A DNA stretch of 64,000 bases, taken from positions 1-64,000 of the forward strand of contig CANQQV010000004.1 of NCBI GenBank assembly GCA_947626095.1. Direction: 5' to 3'. Each line of letters opens with the position of its first letter. The first letter of the stretch is position 1. Of the stretch, positions 1-7,876 are shown piece after piece. A program made the translations under genes and the position numbers. The stretch comes from an uncultured Bacilli bacterium (GTDB lineage: Bacteria > Bacillota_I > Bacilli_A > RF39 > UBA660). The notes beneath the pieces are model-generated. The model saw only the letters and a program-made list of their open reading frames with translations, ran no database searches and had not been told where the DNA came from.

Positions 1-495
1 GATCCTTTTATTCTCAATTTAACCGGATTAAAACAAAACTACATTGAAACTGAATAGGAACAAGCTATGGTCGAAAAAATAAAAACTGTATTATTAGAAT
101 TAGGAAATGGATTTAGTTTTGTTGGAAACCAATATAAACTAGAAGTTGGAAACAAAGAATATTTTATTGATTTATTATTTTATCATACTAAACTTCATTG
201 TTATGTTGTGGTTGAACTAAAAAATACTGAATTTAAACCCGAATATATAGGAAAAGTTAATTTTTATCTATCAGCAATAGACGATTTAGTCAAAAATAAA
301 CAAGATAATCCAAGTATAGGATTAATACTTTGCCGAGATAAAAATAAATTTTCGGTCGAATATGCTTTAAAAGATATACATAAACCTATTGGAGTTAGTT
401 CATATGAATTATCAGAATATCTACCACATGAAATTTTAAAAGAATTACCAACTGAAGAAGAATTAAATTTACATATTGATCTAGAAGGTAAATAG
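1..495 (+). pseudogene. YhcG/DUF1016 PDDEXK nuclease-family gene, C-terminal part (5' end outside the window), interrupted by in-frame TAG at 55-57
   Basis: Frame 1 reads DPFILNLTGLKQNYIETE*EQAMVEKIK then LELGNGFSFVGNQY, FIDLLFYH, VVVELK, GKVNFYL, SIGLILC, which are typical DUF1016 motifs. The stop falls where Leu of E.ELE.A is expected. Confidence 0.8.
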
Positions 496-515
496 AGTCA
501 TTTTGATATTTATAA

Positions 516-680
516 AGTAAAAGAATTGACGAAGTATTTGATCATAAAAAAGCAATTAAAAGAGTAGTTGATTATTATCGTCAAAAAGGATATTCTTTAG
601 AATGCATAGTAGCTAAATTAAAAGCTATGCTAGATTGTTATAATTTTAATGATGTATGGCAGGAGTGAGAAATAAAGAAG
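516..680 (+). pseudogene. Fragment of a BRO-N/antirepressor-associated protein
   Basis: Reads KRIDEVFDHKKAIKRVVDYYRQKGYSLECIVAKLKAMLDCYNFNDVWQE*, resembling the ERIDE..DPE.AI.R....Y..KGYS..WI..RL segment of BRO-family proteins. No start codon or RBS; TGA at 666-668. Confidence 0.55.
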
Positions 681-709
681 ATAACTCTAGTAAATAGAGT
701 TATTTTTTT
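681..709 (+). terminator. Intrinsic terminator
   Basis: ATAACTCTA-GTAAA-TAGAGTTAT followed by a T-run. Confidence 0.75.
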
Positions 710-730
710 ACATCTTTATAAATTAGGGGA

Positions 731-759
731 TTGACAAGTGTATAAAGTACGCATATAAT
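731..759 (+). promoter_or_regulatory. Consensus sigma-A promoter of the five-gene operon
   Basis: TTGACA (731-736), 17-bp spacer, TATAAT (754-759). Confidence 0.85.
735..755. promoter_or_regulatory. Operator 1 (GT-N7-AC imperfect palindrome) lying between -35 and -10
   Basis: CAAGTGTATAAAGTACGCATA, 15/21 identical to operator 2. Confidence 0.55.
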
Positions 760-870
760 TAAATTGTAAATAGAGGAATAATATTATGGCCATAAATTTC
801 TAGATTTACAATACAACTTAAAAGATATTTTAAGAAGAGCATTTAACAATGCTTTAAAATTTTCATTATT

Positions 871-891
871 AATGTGTACAAAATACACATT
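871..891. promoter_or_regulatory. Operator 2 (21-bp GT-N7-AC palindrome) abutting the RBS
   Basis: AATGTGTA-CAAAA-TACACATT directly before GGAGG (892-896). Confidence 0.6.
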
Positions 892-901
892 GGAGGAAGA
901 A

Positions 902-1798
902 ATGAAAAAAGATTGTAAATTAATTGGAACTTTGCCATCTTTGCATGATAATCAAGGTCTCGATTTAATGCTTAGTTCCAAAGAAATAGCTGAAGTTAGA
1001 TTTAATAGTGGAATAAATGAATTACTTAAAGCAAAAGAAATTATTGAAAAACTAAAAATCCTGGAAGAGTGGTATAAAAAGAAAATATGGCTTGATTTAA
1101 AAGGAAGACAGTTAAGAGTTACAGCTTGGGCCGATCCTTTTTATGAAGCGGTTGAATTAAATCATGAAATAGAAATTGAATATCCTGCTAAAATAATCTT
1201 TCGTGGTGATAATACTTCTAATATTATTCATACTTTAAAAAACAAAATTGTTTTAGATCGTCCACCTGAAAGAGCTGTTGGTAAAGGTCAATCAGTAAAT
1301 ATTATTGCTAAATCATTAGAAATAAAAGGCTATTTAACTGCGCATGATCAAGAACTAATAAGTTTAAGTAAAGAATATGGCTTAAATAATTATATGGCGT
1401 CATTTGTCGAAAACATTACTGACTTAAGTGAAATAACTAAATTAAATCAAGAAGCTCATATAATAGCTAAAATTGAATCCTTAAAAGGTTTAGACTTCGT
1501 CAGAAATACTAAAGAGATTCATTTAATGGCCGCCAGAGATGACTTATATATTGAAACTGGGGAAAAGATAGCCATGCTTAAATACTTAAAAGAAATTATT
1601 CAAAAAGATCCTGAAGCTATCTGTGCCTCACGAATATTTCAATCCTTAAATACATCACCCAATATTTCATTATCTGATTATGAAGATTTAGAATTGATGT
1701 ATCGCTATGGGTATCGTAATTTTATGTTAGGTGATGAAATAAGAGGTCCAAAACTAGTAAAAGCCCTAAATGCTTGGAGGAGTTTTGTTAATGACTAA
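902..1798 (+). CDS. Pyruvate-kinase-like barrel protein lacking the C-terminal regulatory domain
   Basis: VRFNSG, WLDLKGRQLR, MASFVE, IIAKIES.KG, MAARDDLYIE and FMLGDE parallel the PK motifs RLNFSHG, LDLKGPEIR, SFVR, IIAKIE, MVARGDLGVE and VMLSGE. RBS GGAGG favours ATG 902 over 872. Confidence 0.75.
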   Translation: MKKDCKLIGTLPSLHDNQGLDLMLSSKEIAEVRFNSGINELLKAKEIIEKLKILEEWYKKKIWLDLKGRQLRVTAWADPFYEAVELNHEIEIEYPAKIIFRGDNTSNIIHTLKNKIVLDRPPERAVGKGQSVNIIAKSLEIKGYLTAHDQELISLSKEYGLNNYMASFVENITDLSEITKLNQEAHIIAKIESLKGLDFVRNTKEIHLMAARDDLYIETGEKIAMLKYLKEIIQKDPEAICASRIFQSLNTSPNISLSDYEDLELMYRYGYRNFMLGDEIRGPKLVKALNAWRSFVND

Positions 1799-3200
1799 AG
1801 CTTATATTGTCAGTGGTTGTTGTTTTGGTGATGAAGGTAAAGGTACGTTATCAGATTACTTGGCTCATAAATATAATTTAAAAGAAAATATTCGTTATAA
1901 CGGTGGTAGTCATGCAAGTCATACTGTAATTGTTGATGGTATCTTACATAAATTTAGTCAACTAGGATCTATCTTCTTAAATGATGATACTAAAACATAT
2001 TTATCAGCCAATACCATTGTTAATCCCTTTAATCTAGTTACGGAAGCGCAAAACCTAGCTATTAAAACTGGTCTAAAAGTTGAAGATATCTTATCTCGTG
2101 TTTATATTGATAAAAATGCTAGTGTTGTAACTCCATATCATAGTTTAATTAACAAGGTCAGAGAATTAAGTGATGAAAGTAAACGTACTGGTAGTGTTGG
2201 TACCGGTGTTAGTGAAGTAAACAAAGTAAAAAAGATAACTGGTATTGATATTAAAATGAAAGATTTTCTTAATGGCGAAGCTAGATACAAATTATTAGAA
2301 CTATTTATGTATACCAGAAAATTTGTTTTACAAAACAAAGATAAAATAGCTGAAGATAAGTATTATAAATATCTTGATGTTCAAGAACTAGAAAAATTAA
2401 TTGCCATAAGAAATAAATACTATATCATTAATTGCTATCAAAATATTATGCATAGTAATTTATTAAATATTGTAAGTAGTATCAAAGAATTTCATCAAGG
2501 AAAAGATATGTTATTTGAAGGATCTCAAGCTGTTTTAATCGATCATGAATATGGTTTTAAACCTAATACTACTTCTTTAGATACAACTAATCACTATGGT
2601 GTTAAGTTAGCTCATGATTTAAATGCTAATATTATCAGATATGGTGCGATAAGTTCCCTTGCATCTCGTCATGGAATGGGACCATTACCAACATATGATG
2701 ATTATTTAGAAGAGCGAATCTTTGATTGCAATCAAACTCCATCATATTTTCAAGGTGTTCCAACTTACGGTTGGTTTGATGCGCTTTTAATTAGATATTC
2801 TTTAAAAGTATCCGAAAATGATTGTTTATTCATGTCTGCCTTAGATCGTTTAAGTAAACTTGATTATCTTAAAATTTGTAATGAATACTTGTATAAAGGT
2901 CCAATCGATGAAGAATTTAAAGAGCTATTTAATTATGAAGAAGATAAAGGCCATGTTATTATTCATGATATAAATAAACCAAGTGCTAACTTAAAAAAAT
3001 ATATTGTTAATTGTGTACCAATTTATCTTACCTTACCAAGTTTTAAAGAAGATATAAGTGATATTAAAGACTTTAAATCTTTACCGCTAGAGTGTCAGCA
3101 TTATGTCGCCTTAATCGAAAAATTAATTAATAAAAAAATTACCTTAGTAGGTATTGGACCAGAAAGAAATCAAAAGTTAGAAAGGAAGCCTTTAATATAA
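1791..3200 (+). CDS. Divergent adenylosuccinate synthetase-like ligase
   Basis: FGDEGKG, RYNGGSHASHT, VVTPYH, FEGSQA, GPLPT, GWFD, GIGPER. RBS GGAGG favours ATG 1791, which overlaps the upstream stop. Confidence 0.85.
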   Translation: MTKAYIVSGCCFGDEGKGTLSDYLAHKYNLKENIRYNGGSHASHTVIVDGILHKFSQLGSIFLNDDTKTYLSANTIVNPFNLVTEAQNLAIKTGLKVEDILSRVYIDKNASVVTPYHSLINKVRELSDESKRTGSVGTGVSEVNKVKKITGIDIKMKDFLNGEARYKLLELFMYTRKFVLQNKDKIAEDKYYKYLDVQELEKLIAIRNKYYIINCYQNIMHSNLLNIVSSIKEFHQGKDMLFEGSQAVLIDHEYGFKPNTTSLDTTNHYGVKLAHDLNANIIRYGAISSLASRHGMGPLPTYDDYLEERIFDCNQTPSYFQGVPTYGWFDALLIRYSLKVSENDCLFMSALDRLSKLDYLKICNEYLYKGPIDEEFKELFNYEEDKGHVIIHDINKPSANLKKYIVNCVPIYLTLPSFKEDISDIKDFKSLPLECQHYVALIEKLINKKITLVGIGPERNQKLERKPLI

Positions 3201-3766
3201 TGAATATAGTAATCGCCGGCATGACTTGTAGTGGTAAAAGTACTTTAGCTAATTTAATTGCTACTAAGTTTAGTAATGTCACTATTTTAAGAGAAGATGA
3301 CTACATGAAAGATTTAAAAGATATTCCTCATCTAAGAAATTATTATCTTCTTGATTTACCACGTGCTTATGAAACAGAAGAATATTTAAATGATAGTCTT
3401 ACCCTAATTAGGGAAGGCCAAATACTATACCCAACTTATGATGTTCGAAATAATCAAAGAATATCTAAAACCGAAATAAAAGTAAGAGGGGACATTAATG
3501 TTTTTGAAGGCTTACATACCATCGATACTTTAGCAAGTATTCCTGGGACTTTAAAAATTTTTATGGATATTCCCCTTGATATATGTTTACAAAGAAGAAT
3601 TGCTAGGGATACAAAAGAGTATGGTCTTAGTGAAGATTACATTAAACGATATTTTAAAGAGATAATTGAAAGTATTTATTGGTCGCATATTTCGAAACAA
3701 AAAGCCGCATCCGATATCGTTATTGAGAAAGAAAGTGATATAAAATGTCTTTTAAAGAAGCTGTAG
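3200..3766 (+). CDS. Uridine kinase/phosphoribulokinase-like P-loop kinase
   Basis: Walker A GMTCSGKST, EDDYMK, PTYD, VFEGLH, RRIARD. Confidence 0.8.
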   Translation: MNIVIAGMTCSGKSTLANLIATKFSNVTILREDDYMKDLKDIPHLRNYYLLDLPRAYETEEYLNDSLTLIREGQILYPTYDVRNNQRISKTEIKVRGDINVFEGLHTIDTLASIPGTLKIFMDIPLDICLQRRIARDTKEYGLSEDYIKRYFKEIIESIYWSHISKQKAASDIVIEKESDIKCLLKKL

Positions 3767-4788
3767 ATATCTTAACTTCTGCTAAACGACCATTTGAAGT
3801 ATTTGGCGGGTATTCGGAAGAAGAAATTAAAAAAAGCTACCATGGTTACGTTAAAATCTGTCATCCTGATATCGTTAATAATGAGTACAAAGATATGGCC
3901 GAAAAGATAATGAAAATTTTAAATGATTTTTATAAAAGAGCACTTCTTGAACTAAAAAAAGGTATATATGATCTTACTGATGAAAAAGAAGTTTTAAAAG
4001 CTGAAGAACCATTATTTACCTTTACTATTAGAAATAAAGAGTATAAATTTTATAAATATTTATATAGTGAAGATATCGCTGATATTTACGAAGGATTATG
4101 TGAAGATGATATCGTTTTAATTAAAATATGTAGTGATGAAAATGATAATGATTTAATTAAAAACGAATATCAAACATTACTTAAACTTAATCATGCCTCA
4201 ATTCCTAAAGTTATTACTAGATTAAAGGTTAATGATAAAGAAGCCCTTATTATGTATAAACCAGATGGTTTAAGTATCGAAGAGTTATTACGTGATTACG
4301 GTTATTTGAGTGGCGAACATATCTGTTGGGTATTAGAAAGATTATTATCTTGTATTGGTTATTTACATTCTTTAAAAATAGTTCACGGTAATATTAAAGA
4401 AGATAATATTTTAATTAATCCTGATACCCATAATGTCATTTTAAAAGATTATAGCTTATGTATTATTAATGCTAATGAAAAAGATAGTACTTATAAAATA
4501 ATCAACGATTCTTATACCCCAACTTATGTTAGTAAAGACAGTAAAGTAATACCTAATACTGATATCTATGCTGTTGGCAAAATAGCTATTAAATTACTTG
4601 GAGGTGATATCGATAGAGTAGGATTACCAATTAATTGCGATATTAGAGTAAGACAATTTATTAGAAAATTACTTGATCAAAATTCCAATGACGCATGGCA
4701 GTTATGGGATGAATTAATCAAAATAAGAACTGAAGTTTATGGAAGTAAAAGATTTCAAACATTAAGAAAAGTAAGGAGGAATGTTTAA
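3745..4788 (+). CDS. J-domain (DnaJ) plus protein-kinase-fold fusion
   Basis: N-terminal EEIKKSY..KICHPD; kinase motifs VLIKI, NEY, HGNIKEDNILI, KDYS, DIYAVG. Confidence 0.8.
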   Translation: MSFKEAVDILTSAKRPFEVFGGYSEEEIKKSYHGYVKICHPDIVNNEYKDMAEKIMKILNDFYKRALLELKKGIYDLTDEKEVLKAEEPLFTFTIRNKEYKFYKYLYSEDIADIYEGLCEDDIVLIKICSDENDNDLIKNEYQTLLKLNHASIPKVITRLKVNDKEALIMYKPDGLSIEELLRDYGYLSGEHICWVLERLLSCIGYLHSLKIVHGNIKEDNILINPDTHNVILKDYSLCIINANEKDSTYKIINDSYTPTYVSKDSKVIPNTDIYAVGKIAIKLLGGDIDRVGLPINCDIRVRQFIRKLLDQNSNDAWQLWDELIKIRTEVYGSKRFQTLRKVRRNV

Positions 4789-5723
4789 TGGGTGGATCTA
4801 GTTATGATAGAGATGTATATAGTGGAAGTAGTTATGATAATTGGGGGACAAGTGATTATTCAGCAACCAGGTTTACAAGGCGTACAATCGATAGTGATTT
4901 AAATCCGGTCGGCAAGAAAATTATTAGTCAAAGTAAACATCCCATAGTAATTGTTTTAGATGTAACCGGCTCCAATATTAATTTTGCTCGTTTGGTTTAT
5001 GATAAACTACCAATGTTTTATGGTAATATTGAACAAAAAGGTTATTTAAATGATTTTGATATATGTATTTGTGCTGTCGGTGATGCTAAATACGATAGTT
5101 ATCCAATTCAAATCGGAACTCCAGCTAAAGGAATCGAAATTGATTCATGGCTTGAAAAAATAGTCTTAGAAAGTGGTGGTGGCGGTAATGAATATGAATC
5201 ATACGAAGTAATGGCTCATTATTTGGCGACCAACACTGAATTTAAAGAAGATGCTGAACCAGTCTTATTCTTTATTGGTGATGAATCAACTAGTGAAATA
5301 GTATCAAAAAGAGAATGTGATCATCTTGGTATACCATGTCCTGAAGATTATAATCCATGGCCAGCTTTAAGAAAGAAATTTAAAGATAATATCTATGTTA
5401 TGCTAAACAAATATTGTGGTAATAGTTTTAATGAACGTTTTACCAAAACTTGGGAAAAAGTAATGCCCCCAGAACATACCATCAAAATCCCCGAAGAAAA
5501 AGCTATTGTCGATTTAATGTTAGGTGTCCTAGCCTTACAAAAAGAAGAGTTAGATGTTTATGCGTTAGATATGGGACTAAGAGGTCAAACAACCAAACGA
5601 ATTACTGGGGTTACTGAAGCCTTAAAAGATTTAGCTAACACAACCGCCTTATCAACTAATATTTCGACTAATCTTCCAACTGATACGGTCATGAAATTAA
5701 CTAAAAAAGGTAAAAGACTATAA
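4788..5723 (+). CDS. vWA (MIDAS) domain protein
   Basis: IVIVLDVTGS, AVGDA, SGGGGNEYESY, FFIGDE. Confidence 0.8.
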   Translation: MGGSSYDRDVYSGSSYDNWGTSDYSATRFTRRTIDSDLNPVGKKIISQSKHPIVIVLDVTGSNINFARLVYDKLPMFYGNIEQKGYLNDFDICICAVGDAKYDSYPIQIGTPAKGIEIDSWLEKIVLESGGGGNEYESYEVMAHYLATNTEFKEDAEPVLFFIGDESTSEIVSKRECDHLGIPCPEDYNPWPALRKKFKDNIYVMLNKYCGNSFNERFTKTWEKVMPPEHTIKIPEEKAIVDLMLGVLALQKEELDVYALDMGLRGQTTKRITGVTEALKDLANTTALSTNISTNLPTDTVMKLTKKGKRL

Positions 5724-5751
5724 AGAAGCAAAGAAATTTGCTTCTTTCTTT
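5722..5751 (+). terminator. Terminator closing the five-gene operon
   Basis: AAAGAAGCAAA-GAAA-TTTGCTTCTTT followed by CTTT. Confidence 0.75.
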
Positions 5752-5830
5752 ATACCCCTAAATTTATTAAAGTCTTTTCAAATAACTCATTTAATGATAA
5801 AATTATAGTGTACTTAAGAAGGTGTGTTAT

Positions 5831-6073
5831 ATGAACGATAATACAAGTTTATTTGATGTCAATGTCGTTAAAAAGCAACTAATTTCCACAACTTTAAAAG
5901 AAATTTCTGTTGCTTTAACCGAAAGGGGATATAATCCTACTAATCAAATAGTTGGTTACTTAATTAGTGGTGATCCAGGTTATATATCTAACTATAAAGA
6001 TTGTCGTAGTAAGATTTTAAATCTTGATCGTGCTGAAATAGTTGCTACTATTATTGAAGATTATTTAAAGTAA
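5831..6073 (+). CDS. ireB: IreB family regulatory phosphoprotein (UPF0297)
   Basis: ALTERGYNPTNQIVGYLISGDPGYI; lies upstream of ruvX. Confidence 0.93.
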   Translation: MNDNTSLFDVNVVKKQLISTTLKEISVALTERGYNPTNQIVGYLISGDPGYISNYKDCRSKILNLDRAEIVATIIEDYLK

Positions 6074-6074
6074 G

Positions 6075-6494
6075 ATGAGATGCTTAGGACTTGACTTAGG
6101 AACTAGAACTCTAGGTTTGGCTTTATCTGATAAAACTAATACTATTTCTTCACCATATAAAGTTTTAAGATGGAATGGTGAAGATTATAATTTATTATTT
6201 AAAGATTTAGATAATATTATCAAAGAAAAAGAAATAACTGATTTAGTTTTAGGTCTACCCAAAAATATGAATAATACACTAGGTTTTGCGACGGAAAGAA
6301 GTACAAAATTTAAAGAAGCTTTAGAAAGTAGATATCATTTAGAAGTTCATTTAATTGATGAACGTTTAACAACTATTATGGCCGAAAATACTTTATTAGA
6401 AGCTGATATGAGTCGCGCTAAAAGAAAGAAAGTAATCGATGAGATAGCTGCAAGTATCATCCTTGATACCTATCTAAAAATGAAAGGAAAATAA
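6075..6494 (+). CDS. ruvX: Holliday junction resolvase-like / pre-16S rRNA nuclease YqgF
   Basis: LGLDLGTRTLGLA, GLPKNM, IDERLTT. Confidence 0.95.
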   Translation: MRCLGLDLGTRTLGLALSDKTNTISSPYKVLRWNGEDYNLLFKDLDNIIKEKEITDLVLGLPKNMNNTLGFATERSTKFKEALESRYHLEVHLIDERLTTIMAENTLLEADMSRAKRKKVIDEIAASIILDTYLKMKGK

Positions 6495-6496
6495 AT

Positions 6497-6784
6497 ATGG
6501 AAGAAAAAAAAGGAGTTTTTACAATCGTCAATGACCAAGGAGAAGAAGTAGAATGTGAAATACTATTTACTTTTGATTCTGACGAAACTAAGAAAAGTTA
6601 TATTGTCTATACTGACAATACTTTAGATGATGAAGGTAGTACTAAAGTATATGCTTCAGTATATGATCCAACTGGTCAGGACCCAACTTTAATGCCAATC
6701 GAAACGGAAAAAGAATGGTTAGTTATTGAAAATATTTTATCTTCTGTTCAAGAAAAAATAAACGATGCTCAGGCTGAAAACTAA
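6497..6784 (+). CDS. DUF1292 (YrzB-like) protein
   Basis: Acidic; EILFTFDS..KSYIVY, PIETEKEW; conserved gene order. Confidence 0.88.
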   Translation: MEEKKGVFTIVNDQGEEVECEILFTFDSDETKKSYIVYTDNTLDDEGSTKVYASVYDPTGQDPTLMPIETEKEWLVIENILSSVQEKINDAQAEN

Positions 6785-6787
6785 TAT

Positions 6788-7876
6788 ATGAAAAAAGTTG
6801 TTATAGTTTTAAGCGTTTTATTAGCTGTAATATTATTATCTATTGGCGGATCTGTTATTTATTATAATAATGGTTTAAAAGCTGTCGATGAATCCATTAA
6901 AGATGTTAAAGAAGAAGACACCATCTTCTTTATTGTTAAACCAGGTGATGCTTCTAAAACTATCATTGATAATTTGGCTAATGCTGGTTTAATTAAGAAT
7001 AAGCAAGTAGCTTATATTTATATCAAACTTCATAAAGTAAGCTTACAAGCTGGTACCTACGAATTAAATCGTGGTATGAGTTTTACTGAAATAGTTGATA
7101 AAATGGCTAATGGTGAAATAGCTGATAATACACTTAATGTAACCTTTATTGAAGGTAAAAGACTAGTTAATTATGTCAAAGTAATTAGTGATAACTTTGG
7201 TTATAGTGAAGATGAAATATTAGAAACAATTAGTAATAAAGATTATCTAAAAGAACTTATAAATAATTATTGGTTCTTGACGGATGATATATTAAATGAT
7301 AAGTTATATTATGCCCTTGAAGGTTATCTATCACCTGATACTTACACTTTCTATGAAGATGCTAGTATTAAAGATATAATAAAAGTTTTATTAGATGAAA
7401 CTAATAAAAAACTAGAACCTTATAAAGAGCAGATAGAAAATAGTAATTATTCTATTCATGAAATATTAACCTTAGCTAGTATTGTTGAATTAGAAGGTAA
7501 TAATAGTGATGATCGTGCTGGCGTAGCTGGAGTATTTTATAATCGCTTAAAAGCTAATATGAGCTTAGGTAGCGATGTTACTGCTTACTATGGAGCTCGT
7601 GTTGAACTTAGTGATCGTGAACTATATCAACAAGAAATAGATGATCCCAACGCTTATAATACACGACCTGCTAGTATGGCTGGTAAATTACCAGTTGGAC
7701 CTATTTGTAGTCCTAGTATAGATTCATTAGTAGCAGCTATTAAACCAGAAGAACATGATTATTTCTTCTTTGTCGCTGATATTAATAAAAAGACTTATTT
7801 TACTAAAACTAATGAAGAACATGTTGCTAAGATAGCTGAACTAAAACAAAAAGGGTTATGGTTTAATTACGATTAA
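6788..7876 (+). CDS. mltG: Endolytic transglycosylase MltG
   Basis: N-terminal TM helix, LEGYLSPDTY, LASIVELE, VFYNRL, YNT, GPICSP. Confidence 0.95.
   Translation: MKKVVIVLSVLLAVILLSIGGSVIYYNNGLKAVDESIKDVKEEDTIFFIVKPGDASKTIIDNLANAGLIKNKQVAYIYIKLHKVSLQAGTYELNRGMSFTEIVDKMANGEIADNTLNVTFIEGKRLVNYVKVISDNFGYSEDEILETISNKDYLKELINNYWFLTDDILNDKLYYALEGYLSPDTYTFYEDASIKDIIKVLLDETNKKLEPYKEQIENSNYSIHEILTLASIVELEGNNSDDRAGVAGVFYNRLKANMSLGSDVTAYYGARVELSDRELYQQEIDDPNAYNTRPASMAGKLPVGPICSPSIDSLVAAIKPEEHDYFFFVADINKKTYFTKTNEEHVAKIAELKQKGLWFNYD

Follow-up and report, generated by a model that had tools for sequence, protein, structure and literature searches.

A five-gene operon with NrtR-type operators and a core shared with phages, inserted between yhcG and ireB in an uncultured Bacilli bacterium

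The stretch of DNA analyzed here (64,000 nucleotides of an uncultured Bacilli bacterium of the gut, hereafter the window) raises the question of what a compact operon, in which three nucleotide-enzyme-like proteins accompany a J-domain/kinase-fold protein and a vWA protein, may do for its carrier. Positions 731-5751 comprise a consensus promoter, five overlapping plus-strand genes, named g1 to g5 below, and a terminator hairpin; the first description of the genes, of their coupling, and of the promoter and terminator holds. The features are the following.

67-495, left flank: C-terminal fragment of YhcG
510-665, plus strand: BRO-N-like remnant of 52 residues with an in-frame stop, at the left edge of the insertion
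731-759, plus strand: sigma-70 promoter, TTGACA-17 nt-TATAAT, 12 of 12 consensus matches
738-752, no strand assigned: NrtR-type operator 1, GTGTATAAAGTACGC, in the promoter spacer, a palindrome with a GT-N7-AC core
874-888, no strand assigned: NrtR-type operator 2, GTGTACAAAATACAC, ending just 5' of the GGAGG ribosome site and the g1 ATG at 902
902-1798, plus strand: g1, 298 residues, pyruvate kinase (PK)-like A and B domains without the C-terminal domain (Pfam PK, E 4e-12)
1791-3200, plus strand: g2, 469 residues, PurA-clade GTP-dependent ligase-like (Pfam Adenylsucc_synt, E 4e-67)
3200-3766, plus strand: g3, 188 residues, Udk/PRK-family P-loop nucleoside kinase (Pfam PRK, E 1e-14)
3745-4788, plus strand: g4, 347 residues, J domain (HPD, residues 40-42) fused to a kinase fold devoid of the catalytic Asp
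4788-5723, plus strand: g5, 311 residues, vWA fold with a MIDAS-like D58-x-T60-x-S62
5722-5747, plus strand: terminator-like hairpin of 11 pairs with a T-rich tail downstream

The reading frames (872/902-1798, 1770/1791-3200, 3200-3766, 3745-4788, and 4788-5723, all plus strand) leave two starts open to choice: the ATG at 872 would lengthen g1 to 308 residues and g2 has an alternative ATG at 1770, but 902 and 1791 are the starts of most relatives. A g2 start at 1791 places its first 8 nt inside g1; the g2/g3 and g4/g5 junctions have 1 nt in common each, and the last 22 nt of g3 also belong to g4. The left flank had been read as decayed YhcG/BRO-like genes, which is what is found: the YhcG fragment is followed by the stop-bearing remnant, and tblastn aligns the latter with residues 115-166 of an intact 296-residue BRO-N protein from the sister genome G005 (63% identity, E 2e-18). 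This intact protein is a Pfam Bro-N hit (E 1.7e-10), and its gene stands upstream of the cassette in G005. The right flank holds ireB and then ruvX, from position 5822 on. In G010, the closest cassette-free genome, yhcG directly adjoins ireB, and homology to it ends near position 510 and restarts near position 5760; the cassette is a clean insertion of ~5.25 kb between the two genes. The g5 profile returns 2 of 61 related genomes, including that of the window (G000), and 1 of the 26 other genomes of the genus, whose only carriers are G000 and G005. The operon is best explained as accessory and horizontally moved. It could also be inert cargo, a phage or mobile-element remnant brought in with the BRO gene and without a current role for the bacterium, as the decay of that gene in the window, the core in common with phages, and the rare carriage among relatives might suggest. 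We regard this as very improbable, however, as all five frames are intact and the proteins 85-90% identical between G000 and G005 despite the BRO decay, and a perfect promoter and two operators fitting the host NrtR are retained. Moreover, cassettes of other Bacilli lie amid housekeeping genes, rny (RNase Y) being one example, and several are directly beside nrtR.

The promoter is the sole perfect match among 29 promoter-like sites between positions 400 and 6200; since shuffled sequences yield more such sites (38.3 on average), its position and perfection alone carry weight. Its architecture is kept upstream of the cassette, or of the cassette's nrtR, in Bacilli-type loci. Characterized NrtRs are repressors let go by ADP-ribose, the product of NAD+ cleavage. 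The available text of PMC2330246 gives NrtR sites a GT-N7-AC core. The pattern GYGTA-N5-TACRC has five matches genome-wide: operators 1 and 2 are two of them, and another lies in the promoter of an nrtR-HisPhos-AAA_28-TK operon on contig C2. The resident NrtR regulon contains TK, the AAA_28 kinase, and histidine phosphatases, with a ThyX-like gene as a possible further member. Among the Bacilli-type loci with upstream sequence, NrtR boxes are present in 11 out of 11, the promoter-embedded box fitting the strict pattern in 10 and a second box occupying the operator 2 position in 10. Of the 36 loci, 8 have an orthologous nrtR next to the cassette. The NrtR link that had been suggested is real on these grounds, and the two operators appear to tie the operon to the resident regulon. 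None of the 20 Clostridia-type loci (L019-L036, L038, and L039) carries NrtR boxes, so that NrtR control belongs to certain lineages and is no inherent property of the system. A Parcubacteria locus has nrtR and an NMNAT-like gene on one side of its genes, and an ADP-ribosylglycohydrolase and an isochorismatase-family gene on the other.

The three enzymes depart from housekeeping forms, as the original prediction held for the PK-like and PurA-like ones; their scores amount to 14-54% of what NCBIfam requires for an equivalog. The AlphaFold model of g1 (pLDDT 93) resembles PykF and PKM2 (Foldseek E 1.5e-17, TMq 0.65-0.77), and g1 retains every alignable PK motif residue; those invariant and aligned with PykF motifs are R33, N35, K67, R69, K190, E192, R212, D214, S243, and D278, numbered from the ATG at 902. 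The g3 protein scores 98 bits against NCBIfam udk (cut-off 180), and among solved structures its best relative is the uridine kinase of Thermus (E 1.7e-13), as against only E 0.002 for nicotinamide riboside kinase 1. For g2, the scores are 193 bits against purA (cut-off 402) and 35 against PurZ (cut-off 300). It could nonetheless be argued that g1 to g3 are divergent canonical pyk, purA, and udk serving ordinary salvage and glycolysis in a reduced genome, g4 and g5 being unrelated passengers. Canonical pyk was not found in G000 (91% complete) nor in G005, hence g1 could simply provide pyruvate kinase activity, and the NrtR regulon includes other nucleoside/nucleotide enzymes. Yet purA is represented elsewhere in the same genome by a canonical copy (530 bits), and the PRK/Udk family by a second gene. 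For g1, whose canonical counterpart was not found, the objection that the operon holds the genome's only copies keeps some weight. A pyk match is likewise missing in 11 of 24 cassette-free genomes of the genus, so this absence is not linked to the cassette. The low scores, the loss of the g2 aspartate loop, and the co-conservation of g4 and g5 with the enzymes in bacteria and phages also count against the salvage reading, to which we give a very low likelihood.

The motifs of g2 were compared with those of the genome's own PurA and 99 clade members, and aligned to solved PurA structures. Its GDEGKG and EGxQG motifs are retained along with the NAGHT histidine, while throughout its clade (19 bacterial and 80 viral members) the aspartate loop, TT(G/K)R in PurA, is replaced by an aromatic-Q-G motif. 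In two more canonical PurA motifs, at what we take to be the IMP 5'-phosphate site, Asn and Thr give way to Gln and Val. Judging from these retained GTP/phosphotransfer motifs in g2 and from the PK motifs in g1, the enzymes look active. According to the available text of PMC12884076, PurZ and PurZ0 are phage-borne PurA paralogues. Similar to them, g2 belongs to a phage-borne family of PurA paralogues, with the same fold and P-loop; it differs from both PurA and PurZ in scoring below the equivalog cut-offs and in the constant pairing of its gene with a vWA gene, and has Asp where PurZ, as that text presents it, has Ser. A FastTree phylogeny with one canonical outgroup separates the bacterial PurA-like clade (SH-like support 99) from the viral side (78), and therefore the bacterial and phage modules may differ in function.

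The kinase fold of g4 is reported by Pfam Pkinase (E 1e-17), and its J domain by Pfam DnaJ with E 1e-5 and 25.9 bits, under the 27.8 cut-off that phage homologues exceed (54.7 and 56.5 bits); the HPD motif is nearly invariant. At the Asp position of the HRD motif, the 22 bacterial copies all carry Asn, and only 1 of 47 viral copies has Asp. Hence g4 is probably not a signaling kinase, and the part of a kinase in a sensor module first assigned to it is not supported. The g5 protein returned no match in Pfam, NCBIfam, or PADLOC, but its model (pLDDT 82) finds the vWA domains of integrin beta-I and of the pilus adhesin SpaC at a Foldseek E of 7e-8, although TMq reaches only 0.40-0.48. It matches phrog_2971 (E 1e-27), and its family counts 1564 clusters at 50% identity (E ≤ 1e-10). 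The fold is preceded by a conserved, predicted-disordered tail that starts with Met-Gly, and followed by a basic tail at the C-terminus. M1, G2, D58, and S62 are invariant, and the Met-Gly N-terminus is common to all 25 aligned members, some with as little as 26% identity, and present in 121 of the 150 best representatives of the family and in 55 of 58 viral copies with a script-placed MIDAS, 24 more copies giving no regex match.

Complex prediction of g2 with g5 returned an ipSAE of 0.41 (median of three runs) versus 0.00 for the best control, with at least 20% of contacts agreeing between runs and partner pLDDT of at least 70. In calibration, 58 of 80 solved complexes attain the mark used, as do 2 of 110 mismatched pairs, but only 7 of the 80 gave scores of 0.60 or less; the model thus lends a g2-g5 complex weak support. 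No fusion of a vWA domain with an enzyme turned up among longer proteins, weak evidence against the model proposed below. The Met-Gly tail invites another reading, in which the amino group of g5 Gly2, Met1 being removed, replaces aspartate as the nucleophile of g2. A purine nucleotide would be linked through C6 to the vWA N-terminus, and the J-pseudokinase with DnaK would handle the modified protein. Such a reaction would fit the conservation and predicted disorder of the tail, the clade-wide replacement of the aspartate loop, and the weakly supported complex of two products whose genes are neighbors almost everywhere. On the other hand, the vWA protein of phage LR745208 starts with MSE and is paired with a PK-like enzyme, the tail could equally bind DnaK or the pseudokinase or be a degron, and the g2+g5 prediction comes without a contact map. 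We know of no precedent for a PurA-like enzyme joining a purine to a protein N-terminus, and consider the idea improbable.

The five genes occur in the same order in 28 of 36 related loci, 2 others being cut by contig ends and 3 carrying rearranged subsets. The MAGs that hold the full loci are labelled Bacilli, Tenericutes, Clostridia, Lachnospiraceae, Ruminococcaceae, Oscillospiraceae, and Ignavibacteriales. The arrangement is therefore beyond chance, which removes the objection that the families might not be co-conserved. In phages, a PurA-like gene lies within 6 kb of a g5-like gene in 79 of 80 IMG/VR loci, and 45 of the 80 also have a g4-like gene. The g5 protein matches 200 records named Mycobacterium phage, and the vWA/PurA-like pair occurs in cluster C mycobacteriophages. 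In HyRo, the one record inspected, the annotated order is kinase, g5-like hypothetical protein, hypothetical protein, and 'adenylosuccinate synthetase'. Versions with a PK-like gene are L132 (g4-g5-g1-g2), L133, and phage LR745208, in which profile A1 found no PurA-like gene.

Nucleotide-modifying defense had been put forward as a possible role of the operon. The vWA/J-pseudokinase pair would sense infection, for example as phage proteins on DnaK, and unleash the three enzymes, either to make a toxic non-canonical nucleotide or to burn GTP, PEP, or nucleosides, whereby infection would be aborted. The interpretation first given is partly supported as a whole. In favor of defense are the non-aspartate amine site of g2 and the sporadic, insertion-like distribution. 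Furthermore, PADLOC places the neighboring YhcG fragment in its candidate family PDC-S02 (E 6.6e-66), BRO-N is nearby as a gene or as a remnant, and the g4 kinase fold matches the PADLOC models of PD-T4-6 (E 7.6e-21), a single-gene Ser/Thr-kinase defense system; g4 differs from the latter by its missing catalytic Asp, its J domain, and its obligate membership of a multi-gene set. However, PADLOC has no model for g1 and g5 and yields weak partial matches for g2 (E 8e-4) and g3 (E at least 3e-3). Defense-island enrichment is not seen: in the flanks of 27 loci, led by NrtR, SDR, and ABC transporter families, defense families are not among the top 25, one of which (AAA_21) carries an AbiEii-toxin description. 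The operators point to control by a metabolite repressor, which is unusual for defense systems. Because the core is present in very many phages, anti-phage defense is one of several readings only, and counter-defense or takeover fits at least equally. We hold defense, with either output, to be rather unlikely.

No description of the five-gene system was found in the literature, and comparison with the nearest known systems is instructive. Anantharaman, Iyer and Aravind reportedly described, in 2012, the TerY-P triad and Ter-linked nucleoside-metabolite operons. As far as the available text of PMC7824862 goes, these place a vWA and a kinase-fold protein beside predicted enzymes for nucleotide-like compounds, and share with our operon a sporadic distribution extending to phages. 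The operon nevertheless has no PP2C phosphatase, TerB, TerC, or TerD, its kinase fold bears a J domain, and its enzymes are PurA-like, PK-like, and Udk-like instead of PRTases, ATP-grasp enzymes, and HAD phosphatases. The TerY-P analogy initially drawn fails because there is neither PP2C nor an active kinase. Also comparable are MoxR (AAA+)-vWA chaperone/activase pairs such as CbbQ-CbbO and NorQ-NorD. The text of PMC7824862 reports a MoxR-vWA pair in jumbo phages. Both designs set a MIDAS-bearing vWA adaptor beside a client enzyme and a recruiter of an ATP-driven remodeling machine; here, however, there is no AAA+ ATPase, the proposed motor being host DnaK via the J domain, and client binding is suggested by the weak g2+g5 prediction. 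NARP1, NARP2, and NARP3 are NAD+ reconstitution pathways of phages in the available text of PMC13464706, small enzyme sets rebuilding a depleted pool, as may be the case here, but the PnuC-like transporter and NadR-like enzyme it mentions are not among the five products. A NAD/ADP-ribose connection exists here through NrtR and the NAD-salvage neighbors of one locus, whereas NARPs yield NAD+, which as a product of this operon is conjecture. The enzyme families of NARP1 and NARP2 are likewise not known to match the five gene products.

We tentatively favor, as possible though well short of established, a module that rebuilds or converts the nucleotide pool, gated by NrtR and under DnaK-mediated control, with a part in phage-host conflict. 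A Nudix-type NrtR repressor would occupy the operator in the promoter spacer and that at the g1 ribosome site, and its release, by a putative effector, would yield five translationally coupled proteins. The enzymes would act as nucleotide-directed phosphotransferases: the Udk-like g3 would produce a nucleoside monophosphate; the PurA-like g2 would use GTP to activate the carbonyl oxygen of a purine-type nucleotide and swap in a non-aspartate amine; and the PK-like g1, devoid of its C-domain, would convert NDP to NTP with phosphoenolpyruvate, independently of the ATP pool. The pathway as drawn has no NMP kinase and no known amine donor, which counts against it. The g4 and g5 proteins may form a control/adaptor pair, the vWA protein binding the PurA-like enzyme, or the PK-like one in some phages, and g4 bringing in DnaK, in parallel to the MoxR-vWA remodeling of client enzymes. 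The net effect would be a nucleotide pool rebuilt or converted while under attack. The core of this operon is common to large phages and apparently undescribed in print; phages may use it against nucleotide- or NAD-depleting immunity, and bacteria as an inducible salvage or conflict module.

The five cassette genes, namely g1 (pyruvate kinase-like, PK-like), g2 (PurA-like), g3 (Udk-like), g4 (J-domain/kinase fold) and g5 (vWA fold), follow one another without gaps, with junction overlaps of 8, 1, 22 and 1 nt if starts 902 and 1791 are taken. The unit and its surroundings comprise the following features:

510-665: decayed BRO-N fragment, left end of the inserted segment
731-759: promoter TTGACA-17-TATAAT, 12/12 consensus, the sole perfect match within 400-6200
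738-752: palindrome GYGTA-N5-TACRC within the promoter spacer, predicted NrtR operator
872/902-1798, forward strand: g1 ORF, most relatives starting at 902
874-888: palindrome GYGTA-N5-TACRC at the g1 ribosome site, predicted NrtR operator
1770/1791-3200, forward strand: g2 ORF, most relatives starting at 1791
3200-3766, forward strand: g3 ORF
3745-4788, forward strand: g4 ORF
4788-5723, forward strand: g5 ORF
5722-5747: hairpin of 11 pairs with a T-rich tail, closing the unit

With ORFs, promoter and hairpin all present, the five-gene operon of the original prediction, bounded by a consensus promoter and a terminator, is borne out. Promoter-like sites within 400-6200 number 29 against a shuffle mean of 38.3, so that their count is by itself uninformative. 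Rfam analysis of window positions 1-7000 (E ≤ 1) reports two chance-level matches, and the 5' leader yields no riboswitch. Sequencing runs listed as containing this DNA number 9, all of DNA type and from 3 studies, with no RNA run among them. G010, the nearest genome devoid of the cassette, has its yhcG homologue immediately adjoining ireB, and alignment with this genome places the insertion breakpoints near window positions 510 and 5760. GC stays at 24-32% without any shift in composition, and the sister genome G005 has an intact BRO-N gene ahead of the cassette. Positions 67-495 encode a C-terminal fragment of a YhcG PD-(D/E)xK protein (PADLOC candidate family PDC-S02, E 6.6e-66), in which an in-frame stop ahead of the ATG near the contig start indicates that the gene is decayed or cut.

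Among close relatives, the cassette is rare: the g5 profile reports hits in 2 of 61 related genomes (that of the window, G000, included). Within the genus, 1 of 26 further genomes has a hit, and 10 additional genera of the family yield none; many of these genomes are incomplete. A scan of species-representative genomes with the g2 alignment, followed by BLASTP of the five window proteins against the ORFs of the hits, returns 36 loci, 28 of which contain all five genes in the order g1-g5. These complete cassettes come from MAGs labelled Bacilli, Tenericutes, Clostridia, Lachnospiraceae, Ruminococcaceae, Oscillospiraceae, Ignavibacteriales and, in one case, Muribaculaceae. Two further loci are cut by contig ends, their remaining genes keeping this order, three are rearranged subsets (Haliangiales g5-g1-g2, Parcubacteria g4-g5-g1-g2 and Bacteroidia g5-g2), and the last three contain a PurA-like match alone. 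The genes are therefore co-conserved, which disposes of one of the grounds on which the original prediction could have failed. Inert mobile cargo is an alternative explanation that we hold to be very improbable. In the Muribaculaceae-labelled contig (L018), cassette and NrtR boxes are both of the Bacilli type, nrtR and an AAA_28 kinase gene come next, and the label reflects either mis-binning or a recent transfer.

In Pfam, the g1 protein matches the PK barrel over the latter half of the barrel alone (E 4e-12). Its AlphaFold model, obtained from a 25-sequence alignment (pLDDT 93; 298 aa), resembles the A and B domains of PykF and PKM2 (E 1.5e-17; TMq ranges over 0.65-0.77 and TMt over about 0.45-0.5, with 0.72 and 0.49 for PykF); as only these domains of the ~470-residue PykF are covered, the C domain is missing. 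The pyruvate kinase equivalog TIGR01064 scores 42.4 bits against a cut-off of 306.4, and the A/B/C three-domain architecture is not found. Nine residues are invariant in the 25 sequences (R33, N35, K67, R69, K190, E192, R212, D214 and S243) and align with the PykF active-site motifs RxN, DTKGxEIR, KIEN, ARGDLG and ATQML; their catalytic roles we take to be those of classical pyruvate kinases. Neither G000 (91% complete) nor G005 returns a second PK match. Canonical pyk is present in 13 other genomes of the genus (of 24-26 compared) and absent from 11, hence its absence is common in the genus and independent of the cassette, and g1 might contribute housekeeping pyruvate kinase activity. Several of the genomes devoid of pyk are >90% complete, which suggests a lineage managing without this enzyme.

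In turn, g2 is a full-length PurA-fold protein (Pfam E 4e-67; 225 bits, against 530 bits for the canonical purA found elsewhere in the genome), and it stays below the cut-offs of the PurA equivalogs NF002223 (193 bits, cut-off 402) and TIGR00184 (185.5 bits, cut-off 395.55). We compared its motifs with those of the genome's own PurA and of 19 bacterial and 80 viral members of its clade. The window copy reads FGDEGKGT, SHASHT and FEGSQA, thereby keeping the P-loop with its catalytic Asp, the catalytic His and the Gln (residue roles that we assume from E. coli PurA structures), and GDEGKG, the catalytic His and EGxQG are conserved in the 19 bacterial and 80 viral members. The clade differs from canonical PurA in that NNAGHT becomes (S/H)QA(S/G)HT, GTTxxGIGP becomes GSVGxG and SRVG becomes SRHG. 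Furthermore, the aspartate loop TT(G/K)R preceding GW(F/L)D is replaced across the clade by an aromatic-Q-G motif (SYFQGVPTYGW in g2 vs GATTKRPRCGW in the canonical copy). The kept P-loop, His and EGxQG together with the replaced TT(G/K)R suggest that the phosphotransfer machinery is retained and that the amine site is different. A third, degenerate PurA-family paralogue (460 aa, Pfam E 8e-25; L006:6583-7965, reverse strand, equivalent to G000:C5:20583-21965) stands alone between prfB and a gene for a 1356-aa surface protein, and GDEGKG is not recognisable in its N-terminal sequence.

The g3 protein belongs to the Udk/PRK family (Pfam PRK 55 bits, cut-off 22) and scores below the Udk equivalogs NF004018 (98 bits, cut-off 180) and TIGR00235 (87 bits, cut-off 220). 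It is closest to the Thermus uridine kinase (E 1.7e-13), with nicotinamide riboside kinase 1 (NRK1) as a marginal hit (E 0.002), and from these matches a nicotinamide riboside kinase assignment is not favoured. The view that the enzymes deviate from housekeeping forms is upheld by the equivalog scores of g1, g2 and g3. As to whether the cassette holds the only pyk, purA and udk of the genome, it does not for purA and udk, a second PRK/Udk-family gene being located on contig C10 of G000, and no other copy is found for pyk. That these are ordinary salvage genes would be compatible with the missing second pyk, and has to be set against the equivalog scores and the canonical purA; this explanation, too, has very little to recommend it.

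The g4 window copy scores 25.9 bits with the DnaJ profile, below the 27.8 cut-off, its HPD residues (40-42) being nearly invariant, and two phage homologues reach 54.7 and 56.5 bits with the J-domain profile. In the kinase fold, all 22 bacterial copies have Asn at the HRD-Asp position, where 47 viral ones have Gly (23), Ala (21), Ser (2) or Asp (1); the position of the Mg-binding DFG Asp varies among D, G and S, and VAIK Lys and alpha-C Glu remain in place. From these residues g4 is read as a probable J-domain pseudokinase. An active Hanks-type Ser/Thr kinase, such as those of PD-T4-6 and TerY-P, was considered and rejected, given the absent catalytic HRD Asp and the variable DFG Asp.

The g5 protein returns no family match in Pfam, NCBIfam or PADLOC. 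Foldseek analysis of its AlphaFold model (pLDDT 82) reports a vWA fold, with hits to integrin beta-I and SpaC (E 7e-8, TMq 0.40-0.48), which together with the lack of a Pfam vWA match makes it a divergent family. The MIDAS-like motif D58-x-T60-x-S62, of which D58 and S62 are invariant and T60 is near-invariant, forms a putative metal site. The family comprises 2025 clusters at 50% identity for E ≤ 1e-3, 1564 for E ≤ 1e-10 and 858 for E ≤ 1e-30, and the nearest ESM-Atlas clusters are annotated as 'hypothetical protein' and rich in Uroviricota. A search among longer proteins found no fused forms of g5, a result of little weight. Long vWA forms of 477-508 aa occur in three loci (L034:7042-8553, L036:4667-6097 and L037:4204-5727), with a ~190-residue insertion that contains a conserved LWN..DLDLH...LDVD.N..G...KP.ENI.W motif and has no Pfam match.

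The first ~20 residues of g5 are disordered in the model and nevertheless conserved: Met1 and Gly2 are invariant in 25 of 25 aligned members, down to 26% identity, and 121 of the best 150 family representatives start with Met-Gly. This invariant N-terminal glycine, together with a g2 devoid of the aspartate pocket, speaks for a reading in which the PurA-like enzyme would join, driven by GTP, a purine nucleotide to the N-terminal Gly of its vWA partner, and the J-domain pseudokinase would pass the nucleotide-vWA product to DnaK. Complex prediction for g2 and g5 gives a score of 0.41 against 0.00 for the best control, with at least 20% of contacts agreeing between runs and a partner pLDDT of at least 70, and lends weak support to their association; in the calibration, 58 of the 80 solved complexes reach the mark, as do 2 of the 110 mismatched pairs, but just 7 of the 80 do so at ≤0.60. 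Overall, we regard this conjugation as improbable.

The g5 family extends into phages. It matches phrog_2971, labelled 'unknown function' (E 1e-27), and 200 records named Mycobacterium phage; in the one mycobacteriophage record inspected, HyRo, a kinase gene is followed by a g5-like gene, a small ORF and an 'adenylosuccinate synthetase' gene. A kinase and a 'PurA-like' gene are named without function among the subcluster C1-specific phams in the available part of a genome announcement (PMC9476963). Among the 80 IMG/VR loci with a g5-like gene that were kept, a PurA-like gene lies ≤6 kb downstream in 79 and a g4-like gene upstream in 45. A J domain with HPD is found in about half of the viral g4-like copies (20 of 47, HyRo and LR745208 counted). 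PK-like genes are rarer in phages, being found in L132 (g4-g5-g1-g2), in L133 and in the 485-kb phage LR745208 (g4-g5-g1), in which the PurA-like profile A1 found no PurA-like gene. Taken together, the phage and bacterial gene orders define as the constant element the vWA protein and the J-pseudokinase, accompanied by one or both of a PurA-like and a PK-like enzyme. The vWA/PurA-like pair is almost obligatory in large phages, cluster C mycobacteriophages and gut Firmicutes, and the J-pseudokinase is often present. A FastTree analysis of the PurA-like clade (94 distinct of 102 aligned rows, the outgroups being limited to one canonical PurA and one paralogue) sets the bacterial cassette clade (SH-like 99) apart from the viral side (78), leaving the root open and giving no direction of transfer.

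Directly upstream of the vWA gene, 28 of the 80 viral loci (L047-L126) encode a ~124-aa protein that belongs to no known family, looks like a coiled coil by eye and, among the examples inspected, occurs mostly in loci devoid of the J-pseudokinase. Its assignment as a J domain or g4 fragment was rejected (hhalign probability 0.1, hmmsearch E ≥ 0.1). Recurrent viral neighbours further include an R2K-clade ATP-grasp (15 loci), a 'Swiss-army-knife'-type HAD phosphatase (14), an ATP-dependent ligase (10), an Rv2179c-like exoribonuclease (6) and homing endonucleases, a set that may point, for phages, to a setting of RNA repair or protein modification.

On the bacterial side, we surveyed 148 flanking ORFs around 27 loci, 6 of the 33 tabulated loci having been dropped as duplicates, truncated or rearranged. 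The commonest flanking family is NrtR (Nudix plus NrtR_WHD, 7 ORFs), in line with the suggested tie to NrtR genes. Each of the 11 Bacilli-type loci whose upstream sequence is available has at least one GYGTA-N5-TACRC box, and 10 of them have two; the Parcubacteria locus has three boxes, and the 20 Clostridia-type and other loci have none ahead of the cassette. According to PMC2330246, NrtR sites share the core GT-N7-AC and ADP-ribose frees NrtR from DNA in vitro. With such an operator upstream and nrtR in the genome, the cassette is a candidate member of an NrtR regulon. The whole genome contains five matches to the box, two of them in the cassette operon; the third falls within a promoter on contig C2, that of the operon nrtR - histidine phosphatase - AAA_28 kinase - thymidine-kinase-family gene, the fourth upstream of a ThyX-like gene, and the fifth is judged, without a check against ORFs, to be inside a coding region. 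The C2 nrtR product is 52-60% identical to the cassette-adjacent NrtR of seven Bacilli-type loci and 38% to that of the Parcubacteria locus, and 18 of 26 further genomes of the genus encode it (83-98% identity). Since nrtR is widespread in the genus and the cassette rare, the latter has probably been wired to a resident regulator. AAA_28 kinase orthologues adjoin the cassette in L018 and L034, and the Parcubacteria locus is flanked by nrtR and an NMNAT-like gene on one side and by genes for an ADP-ribosylglycohydrolase and an isochorismatase-family protein on the other.

The C2 operon (L134, G000:C2:141300-144500; nrtR - His_Phos_1 - AAA_28 kinase - TK-family kinase) has the same promoter-embedded box, and the ThyX-like gene (484 aa; L135, G000:C13:26200-28700), with its upstream box, may be another regulon member; the resident regulon appears to be a nucleoside/nucleotide regulon rather than a classical NAD one. 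The Clostridia-type leader, ~200 nt upstream of g1 in L020-L039 (e.g. L022:5920-6126), is devoid of NrtR boxes; its shared elements are an extended -10 (TGTGATAAAAT), the conserved element GTATAATTATAAATT and a second Shine-Dalgarno sequence, AAGGAGG, after which a hydrophobic mini-ORF of ~5-10 codons is possible. This arrangement may be an attenuator or a leader peptide; Rfam at gathering thresholds reports only tmRNA in eight Clostridia-type loci and no match for the leader.

The cassette resembles several known systems, namely Ter/TerY-P (vWA, kinase fold and nucleotide-like biosynthesis), the MoxR-vWA activases, the PurZ clusters and the NARP pathways, and fails a defining feature of each. 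The likeness to the TerY-P triad (vWA, active STK and PP2C) put forward in the original prediction does not hold, as PP2C is missing from all five products and the kinase catalytic Asp is absent; no phosphatase family appears among the top 25 flanking families either. Membership of PD-T4-6 was discarded for want of the catalytic HRD Asp in g4. The enzyme families of NARP1 and NARP2 presumably differ from g1-g5 as well; an AAA_28 (NadR-type kinase-like) gene neighbours the cassette in L018 and L034 and belongs to the C2 nrtR operon. The PnuC-like and NadR-like families of NARP3 (PMC13464706) match none of g1-g5. PurZ membership was rejected because g2 keeps the catalytic Asp and scores 35 bits with NF038379 against 300; in PurZ, which belongs to the 2-aminoadenine pathway, this Asp is replaced by Ser (PMC12884076). 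A full-text literature search returned no description of this gene set; supplements and subscription-only papers were outside its scope, so that a prior description is possible. The available portions of a jumbo-phage review (PMC7824862) and of the PurZ study (PMC12884076) do not describe the cassette, and mentions are limited to annotation labels for mycobacteriophage kinase and 'PurA-like' genes (PMC9476963, in part).

The phosphotransfer residues of the three enzymes appear intact. Tentatively, we favour a gated module for rebuilding or converting nucleotide pools, used in phage-host conflict. ADP-ribose or a related nucleotide would release NrtR; g3 would phosphorylate a nucleoside, g2 would convert a purine-type nucleotide using an amine other than aspartate, and g1 would recharge NDPs from PEP. 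The vWA protein would bind the enzyme and the J domain would recruit DnaK, by analogy with MoxR-vWA and its clients. The same enzymes could instead serve an abortive or toxic-nucleotide defence, which we consider rather unlikely. The proposal of a nucleotide-modifying defence or stress system under vWA/J-kinase control is supported in part, in its gene set and the deviating enzymes.

The five-gene system is real, conserved, mobile and common to phages, and no earlier characterisation of it was found. It pairs a divergent vWA family (~1,560 clusters at 50% identity, no Pfam model) with a PurA-clade enzyme of rebuilt amine pocket. We know of no function assigned to the non-PurZ phage PurA homologues. 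These amount to about two thirds of the total (147 of 481 being PurZ, according to PMC12884076), and many of them can be approached through the cassette neighbourhood. Beyond the core, bacterial cassettes with all five genes encode a probable PEP-driven kinase and a nucleoside kinase, and the Bacilli version is predicted to be under an NrtR (ADP-ribose-type) repressor. If Hsp70-gated pool reconstitution or conversion is true, it would represent a new layer in the NAD/ATP depletion arms race. If g2 modifies its vWA partner, the chemistry would be new, and conjugation would constitute an unseen post-translational modification common to hundreds of large phages and a set of gut bacteria, used in phage-host conflict.
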